Of a stretch of 64,000 nucleotides of DNA, positions 3,529 through 34,372 are shown piece by piece. The position numbers and the translations under genes are program-made. The first letter of the stretch is position 1. Each line of letters starts with the position of its first letter. The DNA is taken from contig JAIXUI010000074.1 in NCBI GenBank assembly GCA_027484125.1, positions 63,791 through 127,790 on the forward strand, read 5' to 3'. The notes beneath the pieces were generated by a model. That model was given only the letters and a program-made list of their open reading frames with translations. It searched no databases and was not told where the DNA came from. This stretch comes from Bacteroidota bacterium. GTDB taxonomy: Bacteria; Bacteroidota; Bacteroidia; UBA7662; JAIXUI01.

Positions 3529-5013
3529 TTAAGTTCCGCAAAATGTACAATAGTCACCATCCCCACCTTCCGGTGGGAGCATCAAGGCTGATTTATCTTC
3601 TTTATACGCAAAAGGATTTTGAAGCACTTCAGTAAGATTCATCCATTTATTCCAGTTACCGAAATCGGCTGCATCTGTCAGAGCTTCTTCTACACGATGA
3701 TTGCGTGGTATGTAAACGGGATTCGATTTAATCATTTCCTTGGTAGTAGCTTCCAAGATGTCAAGGGAAGTTCCTCTTCGTTCTTTCCAAGTTATCATCC
3801 ATTGGCTCAAGACGTCGGAGGCGGGCTGTTCAGGGACCGGAATTCCGGTAAGAAGAAGAAAAGTGTTGGTATAATCACGTCCTTCTTTCTCCATAATCGC
3901 TAAAAAATCGTGAATCAATGCAGCATCTTGTGGTTCCATTCCAGGCAAACCGAGCTTGCTTCGCATTTTGACCAACCATTGCTGTTCATACCTAGCAGGA
4001 ATTTGATTGATAGCGTCTTGTGCCAACTCTAAGGCCTTCTGCTTTTCCTCAGCCAGAAGAGGCAATAAGGCAGAAGCCAAGCAAGCCAAATTCCATTGTG
4101 TGATGTAAGGTTGATTGCCAAAGGCATATCTTCCTTGCGTATCGATTGAGCTAAAAACCGTTGCTGGTGAGTAGGCGTTCATGAATGCACAAGGCCCATA
4201 ATCAATGGTAATCCCGGCTAGGCTCATGTTATCGGTATTCATCACCCCATGGATAAAGCCAACGCCCATCCATTCTACCACCAAGTTTATTTGTTGCTGA
4301 ATAACCGTTTCAAGCAGCGCAAGAGCTGGATGGTGGGCATCTTCAAGTTCAGGATAATGGCGCTTGATGGTATAGTGAACCAATTGCTCAAGCGCCTGAG
4401 GATTGAGCAAATGGGAAGCATACTCCACGGTTCCTACGCGCAGATGGCTTTGGGCTATTCGGGTAAGCACCCCACCAGGAAGTGCAGTTTCACGAAAAAC
4501 TGGTTGACCGGTAGCCACTACCGCTAAACTTCGGCTGGTTGGAATTCCTAGGGCATGGATTGCCTCTGAAATGAGGTATTCTCTAAGCATAGCCTTCAAG
4601 GTTGCTTTACCATCACCACGCCGAGACCAGGCCGTTGGCCCTGAACCTTTAAGCTGAATGTCATACAACTGTTGCTGAAGATCAAGACCTTCCCCTAACA
4701 ATAAGGCACGACCGTCACCTAGTTTATTGAATTGACCAAATTGATGGCCTGCATAAGCTTGAGCAAGAGGCTGACTACCAGGAAGCAGCGCTTGACCGGA
4801 CAACACAGACGCCCAAGCTGCTGAAGACCAATCAGTTCGTTCACCGATAATACCCAGTTCTTTGGCCAATGCCTCGTTAAATAAAATTAGTTGTGGTGCT
4901 AAAAAGTGCTGCGCATGTTCATTGGAATAGAAATTATCTCCGAGCGACCGATAGTCTTGTTGAAGTTTCCAATCGGGTAATAATCGGAGCGAGTCGATAT
5001 CGAATGAAGTCAT
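3529..5013 (-). CDS. selO: protein adenylyltransferase SelO (YdiU/UPF0061 family)
   Basis: 494-aa ORF with the conserved HQFGQFNKLGDGRALLLGE kinase-like core of SelO/YdiU. Confidence 0.88.
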   Translation of the reverse strand: MTSFDIDSLRLLPDWKLQQDYRSLGDNFYSNEHAQHFLAPQLILFNEALAKELGIIGERTDWSSAAWASVLSGQALLPGSQPLAQAYAGHQFGQFNKLGDGRALLLGEGLDLQQQLYDIQLKGSGPTAWSRRGDGKATLKAMLREYLISEAIHALGIPTSRSLAVVATGQPVFRETALPGGVLTRIAQSHLRVGTVEYASHLLNPQALEQLVHYTIKRHYPELEDAHHPALALLETVIQQQINLVVEWMGVGFIHGVMNTDNMSLAGITIDYGPCAFMNAYSPATVFSSIDTQGRYAFGNQPYITQWNLACLASALLPLLAEEKQKALELAQDAINQIPARYEQQWLVKMRSKLGLPGMEPQDAALIHDFLAIMEKEGRDYTNTFLLLTGIPVPEQPASDVLSQWMITWKERRGTSLDILEATTKEMIKSNPVYIPRNHRVEEALTDAADFGNWNKWMNLTEVLQNPFAYKEDKSALMLPPEGGDGDYCTFCGT

Positions 5014-5035
5014 GAATGCGAATTAGTTAAAAAGA

Positions 5036-5332
5036 TAAACCCACCGGATAATAAAATGTTCCGAGTGGGAATAGTAAGTTAAATGATGCATTTGTTATGA
5101 GAAAAACAACCATGCGTGGATTCCTCCTGCGTGAGGGGCCTGAGGGCGCGCTTGCGCGGTATGCCGGAGGCGGGATGAAAGCAAATATAGAAAGTGAATG
5201 CCCTGCTGAAGTGACGGTAAACCCGCCTTCCGGCATACGGAACCCCTAAGGGGCCCGACCCCTGGCCGTTGCGCTGTTTCATTTTGAAACCAAACATCAC
5301 ACCGGCCAGGGGGCACGCCCAAAAAAAATTGG
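5036..5332. other. GC-rich, highly structured intergenic element of unknown type (candidate ncRNA or cis-regulatory RNA)
   Basis: About 60% GC in a 48% GC genome with no plausible protein. Nested inverted repeats include cggtatgccggaggcggg (5157-5174) paired with cccgccttccggcatacgg (5222-5240), and cccctggccg (5261-5270) paired with cggccagggg (5297-5306). Small GC hairpins gcgcgcttgcgcg and cccctaagggg are also present, and the element ends in an A8 run. Confidence 0.25.
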
Positions 5333-6568
5333 TTACTGGCGCGAAACCTTAAGCTGAAAGCTAGCTTGTTCGTCGAAGAATCTTACTAAGTATATGCCCT
5401 TGGGCCAATGGCTTGTTTCGATGGTTTGCAAACCAGCAACCTGGATGCTGCGACGTTCTAGGAGGCGGCCATCAAGGCCTAGAATTTCAAGCTCACCGAT
5501 TTTGGGTAATTGGAGATTAAGTTGGCCATTGCATGGAACAGGCCAAGCACGAAACGTCTCTTGACCTAGCTCTTGGCTGGCAACCGTAGTGACTTGTACC
5601 GGTTGAGATTCAGGGCTTCTGCACCCGGCAGTATCGGTGTGATCTACCGTATAAGTTCCATTTTGGGTCACCACAAGTTGTTGTTGAGTAGCTCCTTGGA
5701 TAGGCGCACCATTGCGATACCACTGATTACCGGTGGCATAGCTAGAAGATAGGGTGAAAACTGCGGTGAGGGTGATAGACGGTGGCTGTGGCAATTGTAC
5801 ATTGAATGGGACATTCACATCCCAATTTCCAGAGATAATATTTACAGTTTGGCCATTGCCCGAAGCATCGTAGCTGCTGGTGCCGGTATTTTCATTGAAT
5901 CTCCAATACCCCCCCAAGCCTTGTACAGAGAGGCTATCAAGCTCCTTGGTGGAGTTAGCAAGAAGTTCTGCGCCATCCAAAGCACGATTCCAAATTCGAA
6001 CTTCATCAATCAGTCCGTTGAAGTACCGCCGTGCAGTTTGAGAGGGGTCAGCAAGCCTTCCTATGGTCATAGGATAGGCACTTGGGCTATTAGCAATTGT
6101 TCCTGCAAAAGCGGTAGCTGCAACCTGGTTTCCATTTACGAATAGTTTGAGACTATCTCCATCAAAAGTTCCAGCAACATGTTGCCAAGTAGCAAGACTG
6201 AGTACATTGGGTCCAGAAAAAACCTCCCGCCATGCGCCGGTGCTAGCGCCAGTGGTAGTACCGGCAATATTGAATGACAAAACACCAGTACCACCACAAC
6301 GAAGTACAAACCCTTGCTGGCCGCCAGAACTCCAGCCGTGGTTGCAAACAATAGACCCATTGTCTTTGGTTGTAGCAAAGGCAGCTGGTCTGATCCAAGC
6401 CTCTACCGTAATGGCATTAGAAGGATTAACGTTGGCTTCTGAAGCAAGTACCGCATAGTTGCTGGTACCATTTAATGACAAAGCGCTGGTATTTGGTCTG
6501 CAAGGCTGAGCATGAGCCAAAGAAAAATGAGCCAAAACAGCTAAAAGTGAGAGTATGGATTTACGCAT
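5333..6568 (-). CDS. secreted LamG-like (concanavalin A-like lectin/glucanase) domain protein with C-terminal T9SS sorting domain
   Basis: Signal peptide MRKSILSLLAVLAHFSLAHA with ATG at 6566-6568; the ORF track's upstream extension is not used. A LamG_3-like core (...LKLFVNGNQVA...IDEVRIWNRAL...) precedes a C-terminal Por_Secre_tail-like segment (...GIYLVRFFDEQASFQLKVSRQ). Confidence 0.7.
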   Translation of the reverse strand: MRKSILSLLAVLAHFSLAHAQPCRPNTSALSLNGTSNYAVLASEANVNPSNAITVEAWIRPAAFATTKDNGSIVCNHGWSSGGQQGFVLRCGGTGVLSFNIAGTTTGASTGAWREVFSGPNVLSLATWQHVAGTFDGDSLKLFVNGNQVAATAFAGTIANSPSAYPMTIGRLADPSQTARRYFNGLIDEVRIWNRALDGAELLANSTKELDSLSVQGLGGYWRFNENTGTSSYDASGNGQTVNIISGNWDVNVPFNVQLPQPPSITLTAVFTLSSSYATGNQWYRNGAPIQGATQQQLVVTQNGTYTVDHTDTAGCRSPESQPVQVTTVASQELGQETFRAWPVPCNGQLNLQLPKIGELEILGLDGRLLERRSIQVAGLQTIETSHWPKGIYLVRFFDEQASFQLKVSRQ

Positions 6569-6703
6569 GTGCTTGAAATATTTAAGTAAATTAAGAAGGA
6601 TAATTGATATACGTATCTGAATGTTAGCACGTTGACAAAGAATAGGATTAACATTAAAATAGCACGAGGTGCAAACATAGAAAACGGAGCCTCGCCCTGG
6701 TAC

Positions 6704-6739
6704 AAAACAAAAATGCCGCAGTAGCAATAACTGCGGCAT
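6704..6739 (-). terminator. intrinsic terminator downstream of the DUF124 gene
   Basis: A 9-bp stem (atgccgcag/ctgcggcat) with a 9-nt loop is followed on the minus strand by a U-run (plus-strand aaaacaaaaa at 6704-6712). Confidence 0.6.
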
Positions 6740-6759
6740 TGTGAATACGATTCTAAAGG

Positions 6760-7551
6760 CTATTCGAACAAATTGCCCAACAAGCTGCCTCCCTCACGAG
6801 AAGAAGAGCCGTTTCCATGGCCACCACCCATAGCCACAATTTCTTGTGCTAATTTACTGATCGGCATAGATTGCAGCCAAACCCTTCCGGAGCCTCGTAA
6901 AGTTGCGAGAAACAAACCTTCTCCACCAAAAAGCATGGTTTTAAGGCCACCAGCGCGCTGAATGTCGAAGTCGATTTGACCTTCGAAAGCTACAACACAT
7001 CCGGTATCTACACGAAGCGTTTCATTATTCAGCGTTCGTTCAATAACGGTTCCACCGGCATGAATGAACGCTTTTCCGTCGCCTTGTAATTTCTGCATGA
7101 TAAAACCTTCACCACCGAAGAAACCAGCGCCTAAACGCTTATTCAACGTAATGGAAACTTTGGTACCTAAAGCGGCGCAAATGAAGGAATCCTTTTGGCA
7201 AATAAGTTGATTGCCGGGCATAGCGGCTAAATCAATCGGAATTATAGTACCTGGATAGGGTGCCGAAAAAGCGACTTGCTGCTTTCCATAACCACCATTG
7301 GTAAAATGAGTAAGGAAAAGCGACTCACCCATAAGTGCCCGAGCACCTGCTTTGAAAAGCTTTCCCAGGATACTGTCACTCGCATTAGAGCCATCACCCA
7401 TTTTAGTTTCGAAGCGAATACCTTCCGTCATGTAAACCATGGCACCAGCTTCAGCAACAATGGTTTCCTGAGGATCCAGTTCAACTTCTACAAACTGAAT
7501 ACTCTCTCCATAGATTTTATAATCTACCTCGTGGCTATTCATAGGTGGCAT
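6760..7551 (-). CDS. TIGR00266/DUF124 (AIM24) family protein
   Basis: 263-aa ORF. The N-terminus (...[20 protein letters not shown]...) and glycine-rich beta-repeats are characteristic of the AIM24/DUF124 family. Confidence 0.7.
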
Positions 7552-7748
7552 TATTTACCGGCACGCTCTTGGTCAATAGACTCAAAAGCCCCGAAAATGA
7601 TGAAAAGGCTGGCTGCTGTCATCAATGCACACATGATATACATCTGGGTGTAATGAATAGAGTCAGGGTTAGTAAAGCCCAGGAAAACCACGTACAAGGT
7701 GTAGATGATGGCCAAGGCAGAAAAGAGGATGCTGAGAGTCTTTTTCAT
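7551..7748 (-). CDS. small hydrophobic membrane protein (65 aa), probably co-transcribed with the DUF124 gene
   Basis: Two predicted TM helices. Its stop overlaps the downstream ATG, suggesting translational coupling. Confidence 0.35.
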
Positions 7749-7777
7749 AAGCTGATTTTGACGGGTCGAAAATAGTC

Positions 7778-7809
7778 AAAAAAAAGCCGCACTGCATGAA
7801 CAGTGCGGC
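7778..7809 (-). terminator. intrinsic terminator downstream of the lipoprotein gene 7831-9879
   Basis: A perfect 9-bp stem (gccgcactg/cagtgcggc) with a 6-nt loop is followed on the minus strand by U8 (plus-strand A8 at 7778-7785). Confidence 0.75.
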
Positions 7810-7830
7810 TTATGACCCAAGAAAAACGTA

Positions 7831-9879
7831 TTAGTAAGTGTAAATGTTTGCAGGGTTGCGGTATCCTGGAAGGTTACGATACCAGTCGGTTGAATTAACA
7901 CCACCGGAAGTAACCCAATCCATGAATTTCAAGTGAGCAGTTTGAATCGCTGAGTATTCTTTTGGATAAACAAACGGCTCTGGGATGTTGATAGCCCAAG
8001 GTGCGCCGTTGGAAGTTTTGTAGTAACGACCAGCACCTGGGTTTGAAGTATCCTTGCCTTTTCCAAACCAAGTTGCATCATGCTTTTCGGTAGGAGCCAT
8101 ATCTGGGAGGTGGATCTCGCGATCACGACCTTGAACGAAGATGAATGGGTTGAAAGGAGCATCCCCAAAATCTGCGATGCGCTGTGGAGAGGTCAAAGTT
8201 ACCGCCATAGTAAGGGTGTCAGAAGAAGCACGTGGCGCACCGATGATGGTATTGATTAGGTTACCCACTGCACCATTCAACATGTCGTAGGCATTTTCAT
8301 AAACAATCATGGTTGCTTTGTTAACTCCGGCTTCAGTACCATTTGGGCGGCGAGTGGTAGTACCACGGCTCCATTCACCACCTGTTACAGAGGCAATGGC
8401 AGTATGAGGTACACCTAAGCTGATTCCAAATCCATGAGGAAGCGCTCCACCTTTACCTCCAATGTAGTGGCGGCTGAACATTTCAACTACGCGGCTGTTG
8501 GCGTTTAATACCATGCGGTACTCATTGCCAATGGTCAAGTCATTGAAATCGTAATCGCCAACAGAAGGCCAAAGATCTTCGAATGCGAGGTGTGACTGAA
8601 CGTTGCGGTTGTAAGCGCGAGCACCATCGCAAGGATACTCGTCAAGACTGTCTGGAATACCGTCATTATCGCAGTCAGGAAGTGGAGTTAATGGCCAAAC
8701 GTCGGTTGAATCGATCGCAGTGGAAGTGGCATAGAAAACAACGTCGTTAAAGTCGTGGTCACCACTTACAGGAAGTTTGCGGCGAATGTCTTCGAAACCA
8801 AATACAAAACGGCGAGAAGCAGGTTCCCAAGCCAACACCATGTGTTGACGAAGTCCAACCGGAGCAAATGTATTAAGTGCAGGTAAAGAGTAAATTAAAC
8901 CAAAGTCTTTGTGGATGGTATTGGTTCCAGCATTGTAACCATGAGTTGCAATGGCAAAACCAACAATAGTATCTTTTCCAACAACACCAATATTGACCGT
9001 ATTACCAGAAACAAGTCCACCGCCACCACCGAGGTAAGAAGCATTAGGAAATACTGCAATAATTGAATCAATATCACCAGGGGTTGCAGGAGGATTGTTT
9101 TTGTGATACTTGAAGTAATACAGAGAATTTCTGTAACCAGCGCCTTCGTGGAGGAAGGTTACATTTACCGAACCTGTTGAGGTCATCAGAATCTCATGGC
9201 GGTAAGTACCATCAAACAAGAATGGACGCGCTACGGTCTGATTGGTAGATTCAGGAAGCGTTGAACCGATTAAGGTTCCAAATGGAACGCCAACAACCTG
9301 ATTCGGACCTAAGTAATTGGGAACTCCAACGCCATTCCATGTTCCCAAACGGGTAGAAATATAAGGCGCTGATAAAGTTCCGGAAGTACGAGCTGCTGCT
9401 GGAGCAGGTAGGTTGAATTCGTAATTTGGAAGATTGGTTGGATTAGTTCCACCAATAGTAGCCACAATGTTGTTGGCTGACATTGGGATCATCAAATCCT
9501 GTGGGAAGCCATAAGCGGAGGTTTCCATGACCAAGTTTTTAACTCGGGTTGGAATCGCTACAGGCATTTCAATTTTACCGTTATCGTCGGTGAAGGCTGT
9601 GAAAATTAATTCACCACCTAGTTTGGAAGGCTTATCAAAAAACTGAACACGAACCTTGCGGGCGACTGAATTATCAGAAGAACGGAAAGTAAGATCAAAA
9701 TTTTTGGTTTTAACCATCTCAAAGTTGAAGCCTGCCGGAATGGAAGCTTTATCGAGGCTTACTGCTGAATCGATGGTATCCATAGGCTGGTCGTCTTTAC
9801 GACAAGAGCTCACAGAGACCGCTCCGGCTAGCAATGCTAAACCCATTAATCGGGTATAGCGGCTTTTTAGGTTGAACAT
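7831..9879 (-). CDS. large secreted lipoprotein, LruC-domain-like (function unknown)
   Basis: The 699-aa ORF is trimmed to the Met of MFNLKSRYTRLMGLALLAGAVSVSSC (lipobox; ATG at 9877-9879). It contains repeated DFND/DYDFNDL acidic motifs. Assigning it to the LruC/DUF4842 family is from memory and is tentative. Confidence 0.5.
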   Translation of the reverse strand: MFNLKSRYTRLMGLALLAGAVSVSSCRKDDQPMDTIDSAVSLDKASIPAGFNFEMVKTKNFDLTFRSSDNSVARKVRVQFFDKPSKLGGELIFTAFTDDNGKIEMPVAIPTRVKNLVMETSAYGFPQDLMIPMSANNIVATIGGTNPTNLPNYEFNLPAPAAARTSGTLSAPYISTRLGTWNGVGVPNYLGPNQVVGVPFGTLIGSTLPESTNQTVARPFLFDGTYRHEILMTSTGSVNVTFLHEGAGYRNSLYYFKYHKNNPPATPGDIDSIIAVFPNASYLGGGGGLVSGNTVNIGVVGKDTIVGFAIATHGYNAGTNTIHKDFGLIYSLPALNTFAPVGLRQHMVLAWEPASRRFVFGFEDIRRKLPVSGDHDFNDVVFYATSTAIDSTDVWPLTPLPDCDNDGIPDSLDEYPCDGARAYNRNVQSHLAFEDLWPSVGDYDFNDLTIGNEYRMVLNANSRVVEMFSRHYIGGKGGALPHGFGISLGVPHTAIASVTGGEWSRGTTTRRPNGTEAGVNKATMIVYENAYDMLNGAVGNLINTIIGAPRASSDTLTMAVTLTSPQRIADFGDAPFNPFIFVQGRDREIHLPDMAPTEKHDATWFGKGKDTSNPGAGRYYKTSNGAPWAINIPEPFVYPKEYSAIQTAHLKFMDWVTSGGVNSTDWYRNLPGYRNPANIYTY

Positions 9880-20578: not shown

Positions 20579-20986
20579 ATGACCATGGAACCTAAAAAGT
20601 TGCTTTTCCTTCTATTTCTCACCTGCTTCACTTCAGCAGGGCCCTTGTTTGCACAGGATGCAGCATCATTTCTGAAAAAAGGGCAAACTTCAATGAAGGA
20701 AGGGCAATACGAGGAAGCCTTGGTTTACTTCAGTGTTAGCATAGGGCTCAATGATAAACTTTATCTGGCATGGATAGGGCGTGCAGAAGCGCGAATTGCC
20801 CTAGAAGAAGATGAAGCTGCTATGGAAGATTTCAACAAGGCCATAGCATTAAACCCGGAAGAGTCTTCGGCATGGTTAGGAAGAAGCGCATTAAAGCGAA
20901 AATCGGGAGATTTGATTGGAGCAGCACGCGACTTCAATGAAGGAGTAGCCGCCAAAGCGCGAGCCTGGAAAAAGAAGTGGTTTTAG
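20579..20986 (+). CDS. secreted tetratricopeptide-repeat protein
   Basis: Signal peptide. TPR-like helices (...GQYEEALVYFSVSIGLNDKLYLAWIGRAEARIALEEDEAAMEDFNKAIALNPEE...). Confidence 0.55.
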   Translation: MTMEPKKLLFLLFLTCFTSAGPLFAQDAASFLKKGQTSMKEGQYEEALVYFSVSIGLNDKLYLAWIGRAEARIALEEDEAAMEDFNKAIALNPEESSAWLGRSALKRKSGDLIGAARDFNEGVAAKARAWKKKWF

Positions 20987-27488: not shown

Positions 27489-30302
27489 ATGAAGCAGGAG
27501 CCCACCCTTGACGTTCTCGGAGCCCGGGAACACAATCTCAAAAACATCGATTTGAGCCTCCCAAGGGAGAAACTCATTGTACTTACAGGCCTTAGTGGCA
27601 GCGGAAAATCATCCCTGGCATTTGACACCATCTATGCCGAAGGCCAACGCCGCTACATGGAGAGTTTTTCGGCTTATGCCCGTCAGTTTATAGGCGGAAT
27701 GGAGCGCCCCGACGTGGATAAAGTTGAAGGACTAAGCCCCGTCATCTCCATAGAACAAAAAACCACCAGCAGAAACCCCCGCTCCACCGTAGGCACCATC
27801 ACCGAGATCTACGACTTCCTTCGCTTACTCTACGCACGCGCCTCGGACGCTTATTCCTACGCCACCGGCAAACCCATGATCCGCCTCAGCGATGACCAGA
27901 TCATGCATCACCTACTTCAGCATTACAACGGCAAAAAAGTCATCATCCTCGCGCCCCTCGTGCGGGCAAGAAAAGGACACTACCGCGAACTCTTTGCCCA
28001 GCTCTTGAAAAACGGCTTCTCCAAAGTTCGTGTGGATGGCGAAATCCGGGAGTTGACCTCTAAAATGCAGGTAGATCGTTATCAAACCCACGATATCGAA
28101 CTCGTCATCGACCGCCTCGAAGTGGATGAAGCCTCAAAAACCCGCATGTCGCAGTCGATACAGGCAGGGATGAAACAAGGCAAAGGCGTCATCCTGATTC
28201 AAGACTACGAAACCGGCGAACTGTCCTTCTTCTCCAAGTTCCTCATGGATGCAGAAAGCGGCATCGCCTACGACGAGCCTCAACCTAACACCTTCTCCTT
28301 CAACTCTCCTTACGGCGCTTGCCCCAACTGCGAAGGCTTAGGCGAAATAGGCGAAGTGGACCCCCAGCTTATCGTTCCGGACCCCACCAAATCGGTGCAT
28401 GGCGGCGCCATTGCGCCCTTGGGAGAATACCGCGACATCTGGTTCTTCCGCATCCTCAAAGCCCTCGCAAAACGACATAAATTCAGTCTATCGGTTCCAT
28501 TTTCTTCCTACAGCGAGGAAGTGCGCAACCTCATTTTCCATGGTCACGACGAGCCCCTACTGATGGAATCGAATACCGGAAGCTCCTATCACCATGTATT
28601 CGAAGGCATCATCAACGTACTCCGTAAAAATCTGCATGAACCCGGTAGCGAAAATCTCCAGGAATGGGCCGAAGAATTCGTTACACGGGTTGAATGTCCG
28701 GAATGCCAGGGCAATCGGCTAAAGAAGGAAGCCCTGCATTTTAAAATCGACGGAAAAAACATCTCCGAGCTTGCTCGCATGGAACTTTCCACCTTGCAAA
28801 CATGGATGCAGGGGCTAGAATCGCGGATGAGCGAGCGGCAGCAGCTTATCGGAGCTGAAATTCTCAAGGAAATCCGTAAGCGACTCGGCTTCCTCCTCGA
28901 CATCGGTCTTGCCTACCTCGATTTGAACCGACCCTCCGGCACCCTGTCGGGAGGCGAAGCCCAGCGAATCCGCTTGGCTACCCAGATAGGCTCACAACTC
29001 GTAGGCGTACTCTACATCCTCGACGAACCCAGCATTGGCTTGCACCAGCGCGACAACAGCCGCTTAATTGGTTCACTTAAGCAGCTCCGCGACCTGGGCA
29101 ACACCGTTTTGGTAGTAGAACACGACAAAGACATGATTCTTGAAAGCGACTACGTGGTGGACATTGGACCAGGCGCTGGCCTTTATGGCGGGCAAGTAGT
29201 GGCCCAAGGCACGCCAGAGCAGTTTATGAAGCAGGATTCCCTCACCGCCCGCTACCTCAGCGGCGCAATGGAAATCCCTATTCCCGCCGAGCGCCGCGCC
29301 GGCAGTGGCCAATTCCTGCATTTACACGGTGCAAGCGGCCATAACCTACGCAACGTTAGCGTGCGCTTTCCGCTCGGCACCCTCATCGCCATAACGGGCG
29401 TTTCCGGTTCTGGGAAGTCAAGCTTAGTAACAGAAACCCTCTATCCCATCCTGCGACAACACTTCTACCACAGCCGCCAGAAACCTTTGCCCTACGAAAA
29501 GCTGGAAGGGATGGCGTGGGTGGATAAAGTCATAGAGATAGATCAGGCTCCGATTGGGCGAACACCCCGTTCCAATGCCGCTACTTACACAGGGGTCTTC
29601 AACGACATTCGCGCCTTATTTGCCGAGCTACCCGAAGCCAAAATCCGCGGTTATAAACCAGGGCGTTTTTCCTTCAATGTAAAAGGCGGAAGGTGTGAAA
29701 CTTGCGGCGGCGCCGGGGTGCGCGTGGTGGAGATGAACTTCTTGCCCGACGTGGAAGTAAACTGCGAAGACTGCCAAGGTAAACGATACAACCGCGAAAC
29801 CCTGGAGTTGCGCTACAAAGGCAAGAGCATCGCTGACGTACTCAACATGCCCATCAGCGAAGCCGTCAGTTTCTTCGCCCATGTGCCTGCTATTGTACGG
29901 AAAATCGACACCCTCAACAGCGTGGGCCTCGGCTACCTCACCCTCGGACAGAGCTCCACCACCCTTTCCGGAGGTGAAGCCCAGCGCGTGAAACTGGCCA
30001 CTGAGCTCAGCAAGCGCGACACCGGCAAAACCTTCTACATCCTCGACGAGCCTACCACCGGATTGCACTTCGAAGACATCCGCATTCTGATGGAAGTACT
30101 GCAACGCTTGGTAGATCGCGGCAATACCGTACTCATCATCGAGCACAACCTCGACGTCATCAAAGTGGCCGATCACGTCATCGACATGGGGCCCGAAGGC
30201 GGGAAAGAAGGCGGAATGGTGGTGTTTGAAGGCACCCCGGAAGGCCTATGTGAGCATCCGGGAAGCTTCACCGGGCATTTTCTCAAGCTGGAAATGCAGT
30301 AG
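27489..30302 (+). CDS. uvrA: excinuclease ABC subunit UvrA
   Basis: 937-aa ORF with two ABC ATPase modules (GLSGSGKSSLAFDT... and GVSGSGKSSLV...) and zinc-finger CxxC pairs. Confidence 0.95.
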   Translation: MKQEPTLDVLGAREHNLKNIDLSLPREKLIVLTGLSGSGKSSLAFDTIYAEGQRRYMESFSAYARQFIGGMERPDVDKVEGLSPVISIEQKTTSRNPRSTVGTITEIYDFLRLLYARASDAYSYATGKPMIRLSDDQIMHHLLQHYNGKKVIILAPLVRARKGHYRELFAQLLKNGFSKVRVDGEIRELTSKMQVDRYQTHDIELVIDRLEVDEASKTRMSQSIQAGMKQGKGVILIQDYETGELSFFSKFLMDAESGIAYDEPQPNTFSFNSPYGACPNCEGLGEIGEVDPQLIVPDPTKSVHGGAIAPLGEYRDIWFFRILKALAKRHKFSLSVPFSSYSEEVRNLIFHGHDEPLLMESNTGSSYHHVFEGIINVLRKNLHEPGSENLQEWAEEFVTRVECPECQGNRLKKEALHFKIDGKNISELARMELSTLQTWMQGLESRMSERQQLIGAEILKEIRKRLGFLLDIGLAYLDLNRPSGTLSGGEAQRIRLATQIGSQLVGVLYILDEPSIGLHQRDNSRLIGSLKQLRDLGNTVLVVEHDKDMILESDYVVDIGPGAGLYGGQVVAQGTPEQFMKQDSLTARYLSGAMEIPIPAERRAGSGQFLHLHGASGHNLRNVSVRFPLGTLIAITGVSGSGKSSLVTETLYPILRQHFYHSRQKPLPYEKLEGMAWVDKVIEIDQAPIGRTPRSNAATYTGVFNDIRALFAELPEAKIRGYKPGRFSFNVKGGRCETCGGAGVRVVEMNFLPDVEVNCEDCQGKRYNRETLELRYKGKSIADVLNMPISEAVSFFAHVPAIVRKIDTLNSVGLGYLTLGQSSTTLSGGEAQRVKLATELSKRDTGKTFYILDEPTTGLHFEDIRILMEVLQRLVDRGNTVLIIEHNLDVIKVADHVIDMGPEGGKEGGMVVFEGTPEGLCEHPGSFTGHFLKLEMQ

Positions 30303-31231: not shown

Positions 31232-34200
31232 ATGAATCAAGGCATTTACGAAGAGCTAGTGACAAAATTGGTAGCTCAAAAAATAAATGAATTAGATAAA
31301 AACGCATATCATATCAATAAAACAAAGATTGATAAGGCAGAAGCCTCTATTATTCTAGCCAAGCATTTATCAAGCACCATAAAACGAGCTTTAGAACTAG
31401 TTAGTGGCGAAAATCAATTAGAGCTACAAATAGCCATTGCGAATAAAATTATTCAGTTCTTAAAAGAGGAACTACACAAAGAAGATTTCACAAACGATTT
31501 AATTGAGGTAGAAGGCGAACTATTAAAAGCTGTTTTCACCAAAGTAGACGCCTTTTTTTCTGATTTTGAATTGCATCTTAAAGAAATTACTCCCTATACA
31601 AGACTCACGCACAGTGAACTATTTACGGGAGGAAACGTGGGATTATCACTAGAAAGTGAGTTAAAAAAAGAAATTCTATCTGCAAATAGAATAGACTTTC
31701 TTGTATCATTTATCAAATTTAAAGGAATTATTATTCTCGAAAAGGAACTACAAGAGTTTACTAAACGAGGCGGAAAACTTCGTGTAATTACGACAACCTA
31801 CATGGGTGCTTCTGATTACAAAGCAATTCAATTGCTTTCAAAAATGGAAAACACCGAAGTGAAAATTTCTTATAACACAGGAAACGAACGACTTCATGCA
31901 AAAGCTTATTTGTTTTACCGAGAAACAGGATTTCATACTGGATATATTGGTTCATCGAACTTTTCCAGGTCTGCACTTACGGATGGTTTAGAATGGAATA
32001 TAAAAATTACCACCAAGGAAGTCAGCCATATTATTGACAAATTCCAGAAAACGTTTGACTCCTATTGGCAGAGTGATGACTTTGAAATTTTTGACGATTC
32101 TCTTCACAAAGAGAAATTAGTTGCTTCTTTAAATCAAGGTAAAATTTCGAAAACTACGGAAATCAATCACTCCTTTTTTGAAGTAAAACCCTATCCCTTT
32201 CAACTCGAAATTTTAGAGCAACTAGAAGTAGAACGTTCAGTTCATGAAAGAAATAGAAATTTAGTTGTTGCTGCAACAGGTACAGGAAAAACAGTAATTT
32301 CTGCATTTGACTACAAACGTTTTAAGCAAAAAAATAAATCTTCCAAACTTTTATTTTTAGCTCATAGGAAAGAAATCTTAACGCAAGCAATAGCCACATT
32401 TCGAGGTGTATTACGAGACAATAATTTTGGTGAGCTTTGGGTGGATAGAATGGAACCTTCTAATTATGAGTATGTATTTGCCTCTGTTCAAACATTGAAC
32501 AACAGAATTGATAACTTGACTTTAACTCCGGAATATTTCGATTTTATTATAATTGATGAATGTCATCACTTAACCGCAGATACCTATAGGGCTACAATCC
32601 ATTACTTTAAGCCAAAAATTCTTTTAGGATTAACAGCTACTCCAGAAAGAATGGATGGCGGAGATATTCAGGAAGATTTTCATAACAAAATTGCAGCAGA
32701 AATACGTTTGCCAGAAGCTTTAAACAGAAAACTTCTTTGTCCTTTTCAATATTTTGGCATATCAGATAGCATTGATTTATCCAATGTTGATTGGGAAAGA
32801 GGAAGATATGTAGCTAGTCAGTTAACCAATATTTATACGGCAAATGACAGAAGAGTAAGTGAAATCATTCAAGCGCTTGAAAAGTACACCAAAGACTCCA
32901 CAGATGTTCGGGCGCTAGGTTTTTGTGTTTCAATAGAACATGCCAAATTTATGGCAGAAAAATTTTCACTTGCAGGTTTTAAAACAGACTATTTAACCAG
33001 TGCCAATAATGAAAATAGAGAATCAATAAGAAGTAAATTGCTGAACAAGGAAATTAACTACTTATTTGTTGTGGATATTTTTAATGAAGGGGTAGATATT
33101 CCGGAAATTGATACTGTATTGTTCTTAAGACCCACAGAAAGTTTAACCATTTTCTTACAACAGCTCGGAAGAGGACTTAGGTTGGCAGAAAACAAAGACT
33201 GTCTTACAGTATTAGATTTTGTAGGTAATGCAAGACCTGAATATAACTTTGAAAATAAATTTAGGGCTTTAATTGGCAAAACCACAACGACCGTACATAA
33301 AGAAGTTGAGGATAATTTTCCTCACTTGCCACTAGGATGTTCTATTGTATTAGAAAAAAAGGCAAAAGAAATTATTTTAGAAAATATTAAATCTGCCACA
33401 ACGCTGAATCGAAATCAGATTATCAGTAAAATCAAGAATTTCAAGCACCAAACCACATTACCACTTACCTTAAAAAACTTTATAGAGTTCAATAACCTTA
33501 CAATTCAAGCCCTATACAAAAGAGGCTCTTGGAAAAGATTGTGTCAAGAGGCGGGAGTTATTGACAATTTTGAGTCAGTCAACGAAAAAGAAATTTATTC
33601 TGCTATTTCCAATAAATGGCTATCTACGAGTTCAACCAGTTATTTCAAATTCATTCTAAAGCTAGCAACGTATAATTTTCAAGTCAGTGTTTCTGACTTA
33701 AATTCCAAAGAAAGAACGATGCTATTGATGCTTCATTACGATGTTTGGCAAAAAGCAGGAGGTTTTGATTCGATTGAAGAAAGTATTAGAGCCATTGGTA
33801 AAAACAAGGTTTTTGTGGAGGAAATGATTGAAGTTCTTGAAATATTAGAAGACAAAATCGATTTCAAAGAAATTGACATTCAACTCCCTTACCATCAGCC
33901 CTTAAAAGTTCATGCTCGATACACAAGAGATCAAATTTTGTCGGCGTTTGGATTTAGTACCTTCGATAGAAAATCCTCAAGCCGAGAAGGCGTTGCAGAA
34001 AATACTGATTTAAACACTGAATTATTATTCATCAACTTGATAAAATCAGAGGAAAACTTTTCTCCTACCACCATGTATGACGATTACGCCATCAACGAAT
34101 ACTTGTTTCATTGGCAAAGTCAAAATACGGCTGGACCTGAAACTCCAAAAGGGTTATCATACATCAAACATCAGGAAAACAAAAAGAAAATACTGTTATT

Positions 34201-34372
34201 CATAAGAGAAAAAACTAAGGACGAGCACGGAAATACAATGGGATATGTGTTCGTTGGAGAAGGTAATCTCCAAGAATACTATGGAGCAAAACCGATGAAT
34301 ATTAAATGGAAGCTTAGCGTACCTTTACCACATTATTTGTGGAATGATGCTGCCAAATTGAGGGTTGGTTGA
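31232..34372 (+). CDS. PLD-family nuclease – SF2 (ResIII-type) helicase – DUF3427 fusion protein; SauUSI-like putative modification-dependent (type IV) restriction endonuclease
   Basis: 1046-aa ORF. Single HKD motif HAKAYLFYRETGFHTGYIGSSNFS. Helicase motif I AATGTGKT, motif II IIIDECHH, motif III LTATP and motif VI QQLGRGLR. The C-terminal 350 aa are DUF3427-like. GC is about 33-35% against about 48% in the flanks. Confidence 0.75.
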   Translation: MNQGIYEELVTKLVAQKINELDKNAYHINKTKIDKAEASIILAKHLSSTIKRALELVSGENQLELQIAIANKIIQFLKEELHKEDFTNDLIEVEGELLKAVFTKVDAFFSDFELHLKEITPYTRLTHSELFTGGNVGLSLESELKKEILSANRIDFLVSFIKFKGIIILEKELQEFTKRGGKLRVITTTYMGASDYKAIQLLSKMENTEVKISYNTGNERLHAKAYLFYRETGFHTGYIGSSNFSRSALTDGLEWNIKITTKEVSHIIDKFQKTFDSYWQSDDFEIFDDSLHKEKLVASLNQGKISKTTEINHSFFEVKPYPFQLEILEQLEVERSVHERNRNLVVAATGTGKTVISAFDYKRFKQKNKSSKLLFLAHRKEILTQAIATFRGVLRDNNFGELWVDRMEPSNYEYVFASVQTLNNRIDNLTLTPEYFDFIIIDECHHLTADTYRATIHYFKPKILLGLTATPERMDGGDIQEDFHNKIAAEIRLPEALNRKLLCPFQYFGISDSIDLSNVDWERGRYVASQLTNIYTANDRRVSEIIQALEKYTKDSTDVRALGFCVSIEHAKFMAEKFSLAGFKTDYLTSANNENRESIRSKLLNKEINYLFVVDIFNEGVDIPEIDTVLFLRPTESLTIFLQQLGRGLRLAENKDCLTVLDFVGNARPEYNFENKFRALIGKTTTTVHKEVEDNFPHLPLGCSIVLEKKAKEIILENIKSATTLNRNQIISKIKNFKHQTTLPLTLKNFIEFNNLTIQALYKRGSWKRLCQEAGVIDNFESVNEKEIYSAISNKWLSTSSTSYFKFILKLATYNFQVSVSDLNSKERTMLLMLHYDVWQKAGGFDSIEESIRAIGKNKVFVEEMIEVLEILEDKIDFKEIDIQLPYHQPLKVHARYTRDQILSAFGFSTFDRKSSSREGVAENTDLNTELLFINLIKSEENFSPTTMYDDYAINEYLFHWQSQNTAGPETPKGLSYIKHQENKKKILLFIREKTKDEHGNTMGYVFVGEGNLQEYYGAKPMNIKWKLSVPLPHYLWNDAAKLRVG

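Follow-up and report, generated by a model that had tools for sequence, protein, structure and literature searches.

A structured element between the LamG and selO genes of a Bacteroidota bacterium as one copy of a small candidate family also found in a phage contig and an IS91-family insertion sequence

Introduction

Mobile elements and phages carry a number of orphan structured RNAs, among them the HEARO (omega) RNA of IscB, the IS605-orfB RNAs, and the twister, hatchet, pistol and HDV-like ribozymes. Here we describe an element of 192 nt (positions 5129–5320, minus strand; GC content 0.61) that lies between a LamG/type IX secretion system (T9SS) gene and selO in a 64,000-nucleotide stretch of DNA from a Bacteroidota bacterium (contig JAIXUI010000074.1 of GenBank assembly GCA_027484125.1). 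This whole stretch is called the window below, and positions are counted within it unless another locus is named. Like the orphan RNAs, the element has a patchy cross-phylum spread with phage, transposase-adjacent and chromosomal copies, and it combines a short invariant core with variable hairpins that carry stable loops, in intergenic positions and co-oriented with its neighbours. Unlike them, it has no match in Rfam 15, no IscB, TnpB or recombinase partner gene, and about five independent copies.

Other described systems share single properties with the element. Riboswitches and other 5′ leaders are similar in size, in the closing P1 stem, in the multi-way junctions and in the conserved junction nucleotides. 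Intrinsic terminators and structured 3′ untranslated regions (UTRs) resemble it in the very stable GC-rich stems and in a start 8–15 nt past a stop codon, and the REP, BIME and REPIN palindromes in being GC-rich, imperfect, placed just after a gene and variably present between strains. The likeness to the terIS/oriIS ends of IS91 and to single-strand origins lies in a strong fold of single-stranded DNA (ssDNA), and in the presence of one full and two partial copies within the non-coding 5′ portion of an IS91-family insertion sequence (IS). Published terIS ends consist of a single subterminal palindrome located beside the cleavage tetranucleotide (PMC13181058).

A sequence-only reading of the interval 5036–5332 had described an unclassified structured element, and had offered a 5′ leader of selO, a small RNA (sRNA) or a repeat resembling a repetitive extragenic palindrome (REP) as its possible nature. 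From the comparison of homologous loci we tentatively favour, as plausible though falling just short of probable, a horizontally spread structured RNA of the minus strand, which would be read through from the LamG gene and would act in cis at a transcript boundary.

Results

Homologous copies in Bacteroidota, a phage contig and an insertion sequence

The LamG/T9SS open reading frame (ORF; 5333–6739, minus strand; Pfam Laminin_G_3 and Por_Secre_tail) and selO (3529–5013, minus strand; Pfam SelO, 9e-107) are separated by a spacer of 319 nt, and the end of the former and the start of the latter are where the sequence-only reading had placed them. Identical or near-identical loci occur in a metagenome-assembled genome (GCA_027485865.1) and in several Logan assemblies; the locus L082 carries that of the window at 99.8% identity. 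Judging from the T9SS sorting domain and the nearest named relatives of selO, the host is probably a Cytophagia-like bacterium within the Bacteroidota. We read the region after the LamG stop codon in four relatives, whose LamG proteins are 83, 80, 74 and 69% identical. The element follows the LamG gene in L089 (69%) and L088 (74%), a terminator followed by a degenerate element is present in L091 (83%), where the contig ends inside the element, and a plain terminator stands in its place in L087 (80%). The LamG and selO proteins of the hosts that carry the element at this locus are just 66–74% identical, while the core of the element is near-invariant.

Outside Bacteroidota chromosomes, a pattern made of the two most conserved blocks retrieved 13 stretches from IMG/VR, one of which is genuine: the phage contig L100, 38.7 kb in length, which encodes a terminase large subunit (phrog_2, 1e-40) and an ArdC-like protein. 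In the JGI metagenomes, a three-block pattern found L105, which is the same as L100, and L106–L109, which represent one locus in an organism of 65% GC; this host is certainly of a different lineage. The strict core pattern occurs in 6 stretches among 241 million metagenome records. Scans of IMG/VR with three DNA patterns, followed by regular-expression and covariance-model screening, gave nothing genuine beyond L100, blastn with the window and L100 copies gave no relevant match among PLSDB plasmids and GenBank phages, and no relatives of the L100 phage were found through a neighbouring protein. In every context the element has the same orientation as the gene downstream of it.

The covariance model scores 81.5 bits for the locus in L082 and L085, 70.3 for L089, 62.8 for L088 and 50 for L100, values that are circular, as all of these loci except L085 are in the training set and the L085 element is identical to that of the window. 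The membership of L106 comes from manual block alignment alone, the trimmed model R1 missing it because of its long inserts. On these alignments the element of the window belongs to a small candidate family of structured sequences that has not been catalogued before.

Shared order of parts and two alternative folds

All copies have about 45 near-invariant core bases in common (GGGCGUG, GUCGGGCC, GGGGUUCCGU and CCCUYCAGGYCCCU-CACGC), and GUCGGGCC and GGGUUCCGU are invariant in five of five members. Read in the sense of the LamG gene, the parts follow one another in the same order in all five independent copies: the 5′ strand of the closing stem (P1a), hairpin H1, UC, GGGCC-loop-GGGGUUCC, hairpins H3 and H4, a tail, and the 3′ strand of the closing stem (P1b). 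The family is thus defined by P1a - H1 - UC-GGGCC..GGGGUUCCGU - H3 - H4 - CCYN2-4RGGYCCCU - P1b, of which the window copy has every block and the tail pattern is found in all members. The fold comprises five or six helices within a family length of approximately 165–205 nt. The closing stem P1 (GCGUG/CACGC), of 5 bp, encloses H1, the core, H3 and H4. The sequences of H1, H3 and H4 are wholly different between copies and their pairing is retained, the H4 loop taking the form GCAA, UUC or a long form.

Two folds describe the five independent sequences, in an alignment (A2) that we cut back by hand to the bases of the hairpins; this trimming biases H1, H3 and H4 towards pairing and leaves P1 and the core unaffected. 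In fold A the core forms a hairpin, H2, with two invariant G.U pairs; 91.5% of the alignment cells pair and 13 of 26 pairs are changed on both sides, values that none of 500 shuffles reaches, and sliding the alignment by 1–3 columns drops the pairing to 28–49%. In fold D, given by RNAalifold, the core pairs with the tail through P2 (GGGCC/GGYCC) and P3 ((A)GGGG/CCCU), which close a three-way junction of UUCC, H3 and H4. Here too 91.5% of the cells pair and 15 of 31 pairs are changed on both sides. Among the changes are a swap of A-U for U-A and, in L089 and L100, replacements of G-C by G-U. The two folds score equally well and may alternate.

The covariation that the sequence-only reading had proposed as a check is seen in single helices. 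The P1a of L100 is GGAGCUU and pairs with AAGC, so that three pairs are changed on both sides relative to GCGUG/CACGC, and 6 of the 8 outer pairs of H3 are changed on both sides across members. The structure is kept by compensating changes.

The window copy: parts, composition and folding strength

All parts of the window copy are given on the minus strand. Directly 5′ of the element, 8 nt past the LamG stop codon, is a T8/U8 run (5321–5328), and the same T8 stands ahead of GGGCGTG in L089; since no hairpin precedes the run in either locus, it is not a terminator tail. P1a (GGGCGUG, 5314–5320) is identical in the window, L088, L089 and L106. The variable long hairpin H1 (5259–5313) is of 22 bp here and has the conserved base CCCC/GGGG, for which L088 has CGCC/GGCG; its sequence differs yet pairs in L089, L100, L106 and L232, the last being an IS copy described below. 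The linker UC and the conserved core GGGCCCCUUAGGGGUUCC (5239–5258) either fold as H2 or provide the 5′ sides of both P2 and P3. The variable hairpin H3 (5159–5238) opens with GU and closes with AC, and its outer arms (5159–5168 and 5229–5238) are paired at 10 of 10 positions. H4 (5147–5158), CGCG-CAAG-CGCG with a GCAA loop of the GNRA type on the minus strand, is identical in L100, is CGUGCUUCGCACG in L089 and is a 33-nt extended hairpin in L106. The conserved tail CCCUCAGGCCCCU (5134–5146) is unpaired in fold A or supplies the 3′ strands of P3 and P2 in fold D, and P1b (5129–5133) reads CACGC, with AAGC in L100. The 3′ flank AGGAGGAAUCCACGCAUGGUUGUUUUUCUC (5099–5128) has CAUGG-YU-R-U5 in common with L089 only. 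We note that the H3 loop of L089, AATTCAACTWWAGCGAWAC (7335–7365 of that locus), is seen again some 165 nt downstream of the element (7502–7535), where it forms the loop of another hairpin whose stem is different.

The sequence-only reading had listed nested inverted repeats, GC mini-hairpins and an A8/T8 run, all of which are present: in addition to the H3 arms, there are two arms of 34 nt each (5251–5284 and 5287–5320) that are 76% complementary, and short GC hairpins at 5239–5256 and 5147–5158. Its figure of about 60% GC holds for the core (5129–5320) and fails for the full interval 5036–5332, which has just 0.52 because its lowest 90 nt are AT-rich, apparently promoter DNA of selO. The 150-nt GC maximum (5127–5276) is 0.633, compared with a window mean of 0.45; comparable peaks in the 64 kb are found only inside the uvrA coding sequence (27489–30302), and the element is the sole non-coding one. 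The core has an RNA minimum free energy (MFE) of −94.9 kcal/mol, against −71.4 ± 4.5 in 200 dinucleotide shuffles (z = −5.2, 0/200). With DNA parameters the z-score is −6.2 and the MFE structure is exactly fold D. The entire 319-nt spacer gives z-scores of −5.2 and −5.35 on its two strands.

Against Rfam 15 (4227 models), no family reaches its gathering threshold anywhere in the window. The best permissive match, to a miRNA model, scores 19.6 bits where 105 would be required, and the searches of L088, L089, L091, L105, L106, L108 and L231–L233 gave nothing relevant and nothing near threshold. ARAGORN called no tRNA or tmRNA in L082, L088, L089, L100, L106 or the IS loci, and our literature search found no RNA motif linked to IS91 or to selO. 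Together with the structure conserved by compensatory changes, the lack of an Rfam match means that the description as an unclassified structured element stands. Known self-cleaving ribozyme classes are excluded by the Rfam result, and a new class is a possibility. The short ORFs that overlap the element have no Pfam match, and the hairpin lengths of homologues (55/50/64/50/72 nt and 80/56/81/57/35 nt) differ by amounts that are not multiples of three, so that no reading frame is conserved; on these two grounds a coding function was rejected.

The strand favoured by the core

Both core folds need G.U pairs on the strand with the sense of the LamG gene, in the form of the two invariant pairs of H2 or of the GC-to-GU changes in P2 and P3; the antisense strand would have A.C mismatches at these positions. 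In the outer stems of the variable hairpins, G.U outnumbers A.C by 7 to 3 on the same strand. The GCAA loop of H4 occurs in three lineages, and the tip of H1 in L106 is a cUUCGg loop. The distribution (a single chromosomal locus retained over deep divergence and lost from some relatives, one phage and one IS lineage), the invariant core and the freely varying paired helices point to a portable, self-contained structured nucleic acid under selection. Its conservation, structure, distribution and position outside known families are shown by the data; transcription, the minus strand as the RNA strand, and a function are inferred. That the element acts as a minus-strand RNA, cis-acting and sRNA readings combined, is somewhat probable, and a role as DNA or ssDNA rather unlikely.

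The IS91-family and phage contexts and a role as folded ssDNA

In L106, the element is found in the 5′ non-coding region of an IS91-family (HUH Y2, rolling-circle) IS, about 90 nt upstream of its transposase gene tnpA (Zn_Tnp_IS91, 1e-14). Two more copies of this type of IS, L232 (tnpA 85% identical) and L231 (76%), lie in other genomic contexts and share with L106 about 35 nt before tnpA as well as the 5′ part of the element, which is P1a and H1 with a different but paired stem in L232, and P1a and the 5′ arm of H1 in L231. Such retention in different contexts, like the placement of a full element inside a rolling-circle IS, favours the main rival of the RNA reading, in which the element would be a folded ssDNA or cruciform of mobile DNA, for example a lagging-strand priming signal of the sso or ssi (single-strand origin or initiation) kind or a recognition structure for rolling-circle HUH enzymes, with the chromosomal copy captured or left as a relic. 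The non-coding phage copy beside three 9-nt direct repeats, stems that are almost wholly Watson–Crick, the agreement of the DNA-parameter MFE with fold D and the about equal folding of sense and antisense strands are in accordance with it. In addition, the antisense of H4 in L088 and L089 is GCGAAGC, a very stable DNA mini-hairpin.

However, the core requires G.U (in DNA, G.T) pairs on one strand in all members, and a relic would hardly explain a core kept at one chromosomal locus across hosts as diverged as these. By tblastn, no transposase, Rep or relaxase remnant is found near the Bacteroidota copies, and neither the window nor L088, L089 or L100 yielded an IS91-type tnpA. Less closely related IS91-type transposases (L233 and L234–L239) have no counterpart of the element ahead of them. 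The homology between L106 and L231 extends beyond P1a by at least 60 nt on the upstream side, which places the element within the IS and not at its end, whereas terIS is one subterminal palindrome and not a multi-helix junction (PMC13181058). From this and the comparison of L231–L239, terIS was rejected as a full explanation; the element is a module of one IS lineage and not a defining part of the IS91 family. Nor is there a consistent CS-6-like motif: an origin of the ssoA type would have TAGCG(A/T) in a terminal loop, together with an RSB, and would work on ssDNA in one orientation, and among the members TAGCGA is seen in the H3 loop of L089 and in no other. The ssDNA explanation, although the foremost competitor, is on the whole unlikely.

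Some further features of these loci were seen. The L100 copy is placed within 1 kb of ORF-free DNA that separates divergent blocks of genes. The three tandem 9-nt repeats (CAACTTGCT, plus strand, 6968–6993 of L100) are located just upstream of the element and look like iterons or operators. The H1 and H3 loops of L100 (minus strand, approximately 6890–6920 and 6815–6845) share a motif of about 25 nt, CGACRKTCGGATGCACTCMYTTAC, on different stems, and the 11-mer CGGATGCACTC has a third occurrence 1.8 kb away on the same strand (approximately 5000–5010). In L231, the stretch TGGAGCTAGCGGGAGTCGAACC (approximately 235–260), beside the IS91-family element, is like the reverse complement of a tRNA 3′ end; its identification as a tRNA was rejected, as neither ARAGORN nor Rfam called it, and it may be the remnant of an att site.

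The LamG gene end, sRNA and terminator

A gene for a trans-acting sRNA, independently transcribed from its own promoter to its own 3′ end and working by base pairing or protein binding, would suit the compact closed structure with variable peripheral hairpins. For its promoter one could point to a sigma-70-like TTGAGC-N18-TAAGAT about 25 nt upstream of P1a in L100, and to the T-rich box TTTTTTTG, which immediately precedes the element in both the window and L089 and loosely resembles the Bacteroidota −7 box, TAnnTTTG. Against this, no promoter-like or terminator-like site was called at the ends of the element, and the conserved bases are located in helices and junctions and not in an exposed seed. 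The sole notable match in the window is a 15-nt exact inverted one between the H3 loop (5200–5214) and the signal-peptide region (20628–20642) of an ORF on the plus strand (20579–20986); a minus-strand RNA would be same-sense to this mRNA. Pairing would need a plus-strand transcript and the chance expectation is about 0.04, for which reasons 20628–20642 was rejected as a target. We regard an sRNA gene as improbable.

The LamG stop codon is followed by a canonical hairpin terminator in L087, L088 and L091. No stable structure comes ahead of the U8 run in either the window or L089, and the element is the first structure past the stop; as no terminator lies between them, transcription from the LamG gene would be expected to enter the element. 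The element might instead be no more than an elaborate terminator of the factor-independent kind at the LamG end, or a structured but neutral spacer, and have no sequence-specific function. It takes the same position as the ordinary hairpin of the three relatives, and GC-rich, very stable stems with U-rich tracts 20–30 nt downstream in the window and L089 are in line with this explanation. What makes it doubtful is that the ~45 core nucleotides, unpaired ones included, are invariant across Bacteroidota, the phage and the 65%-GC organism, and, to our knowledge, conservation of junction sequence is not a property of terminators or of neutral spacers. Unlike an intrinsic terminator, the element has no U-run directly after H1, H2, H3, H4 or P1. 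A terminator scan returned one weak 6-bp site inside H1, and no canonical terminator was detected in the 3′ flank (5099–5128). Moreover, the L100 copy in its ORF-free region and the copy inside the L106 IS have no gene end just upstream.

The locus L085 is a strain variant whose flanks share about 98% identity with the window. The match covers window positions 5120 to 7936, and positions 4935–5119 are replaced by 3.8 kb (2818–6619 of L085). In this segment are a T9SS gene with a beta-lactamase fold, which is encoded on the opposite strand, a PQQ_2 gene and the 5′ end of selO in diverged form. The breakpoints lie 9 nt after P1 and the element (5119/5120) and 79 nt into selO. Because the replacement begins past the element, the GC-rich block remains attached to the end of the LamG gene; the breakpoint would fit recombination that used the conserved element as homology tract. 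We also note that the longest LamG ORF is of 468 aa, compared with 410–411 aa in the four closest homologues, and that the true start is probably an internal ATG near 6568.

Copy number and the relation to selO

A dispersed REP or miniature inverted-repeat transposable element (MITE) of the source genome is very improbable. The element is a GC-rich intergenic palindromic cluster, patchy among relatives (absent in L087, degenerate in L091) and transposase-linked in one lineage, all as such a repeat might be. Yet no second copy exists in the 64 kb, where blastn-short gave chance matches of only 11–15 nt and the covariance model with filters off found a single copy, with the next best match at E = 1.5; the REP-like idea of the sequence-only reading is thereby not supported within the window. 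Further, REPs are species-specific and the core is conserved across phyla within a multi-helix junction that has a long-range closing stem, where REPs have one or two hairpins, the strict core pattern is as rare as given above, and among the 13 IMG/VR pattern stretches only L100 carries the element. By eye, no terminal inverted repeats, target duplications or flanking direct repeats are evident around it, the empty and filled sites being too diverged to compare.

selO appears to own a promoter downstream of the element, judging from conservation. The promoter-like motif GGAACATTTT-N11-13-GGGTTTA (5034–5062, minus strand), outside the element, is common to the window, L085, L087, L088, L089 and L111, and in all six relatives its GGAAC starts 48–52 nt before the ATG; we take this box to be like the −35 of extracytoplasmic function (ECF)-sigma promoters. 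In the window the motif overlaps a terminator-looking hairpin, CCCACTCGG..CCGGTGGG. An ECF-sigma-like motif would fit the stress role reported for selO.

In the window, L088 and L089 the element stands upstream of selO and points the same way, an arrangement from which the sequence-only reading had proposed a 5′ leader, and a riboswitch could be placed in the same way. This explanation is ruled out for most purposes, and we leave it the least credence of all, since the promoter motif sits between the element and the ATG, the element of L085 stays beside the LamG gene with 3.8 kb and two genes between it and selO, selO is present without the element in L087 and L111, and the element is absent from 80 of 80 selO loci of other phyla. 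It is also absent from L112. In a selO-based genome scan, the closest species representative was only 52% identical. Unlike those of a riboswitch, the downstream genes (selO, an IS91 transposase in L106 and a small phage ORF in L100) are unrelated, and no expression platform is conserved.

Elsewhere in the window, 31232–34372 (plus strand) encodes a protein of 1046 aa that combines a PLD-type nuclease (RE_NgoFVII/PLDc_2), a ResIII/DEAD helicase and DUF3427, and looks to be of restriction or defence type.

Discussion

The explanation that we favour, a horizontally spread cis-acting RNA of the minus strand, would work as follows. The LamG/T9SS transcript would read straight into the element, which stands upstream of the putative promoter of selO itself and hence at a transcript boundary. 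Because the same module is found in the intergenic region of a phage and in the 5′ UTR of an IS91 transposase, each time co-oriented with the next gene, it may be a portable, context-independent cis-acting RNA module. Its role could be in the processing, 3′-end formation or stabilisation of the upstream RNA and in the insulation of a separately controlled downstream gene, and a self-cleaving or otherwise self-contained RNA fold would be one concrete version. The next genes plausibly have their own control in each case, by the ECF-type promoter of selO, as a transposase gene, or as a phage operon with a strong ribosome-binding site.

Several observations weigh against this explanation. No convincing promoter or terminator flanks the element. 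It is wholly absent after the LamG gene of L087, and in L088 the 5′ strand of P1 also makes up one side of a canonical terminator hairpin with U7 after it, which would compete with P1. L231 and L232 are without the core, so that the core is dispensable at least there. Of the stem pairs, 126 of 145 are Watson–Crick and equally compatible with DNA or ssDNA hairpins, and the antisense MFE is slightly lower in four of five members. The covariation statistics, coming from five sequences and a hand-trimmed alignment, are indicative and not proof.

A more far-reaching proposal, which we consider unlikely, is that mobile elements carry a hitherto undescribed class of functional RNA, with the element as its first representative. 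It could be a new self-cleaving ribozyme, or a partner RNA of IS91/HUH Y2 transposition and phage biology, that was secondarily fixed in a Bacteroidota chromosome and there shapes the LamG/selO boundary.

Under either the RNA or the ssDNA reading, the idea of a selO leader can be dropped. If the element acts as ssDNA, different phyla would have in common a portable module for priming or recognition. As a functional RNA, it would bring a new, rare class to the few structured RNAs that phages, insertion sequences and chromosomes share, a group that has repeatedly yielded ribozymes and guide RNAs. The IS91/ISCR rolling-circle transposons spread antibiotic-resistance genes, and we know of no RNA partner for them; an RNA link to these transposons, if true, would be new.

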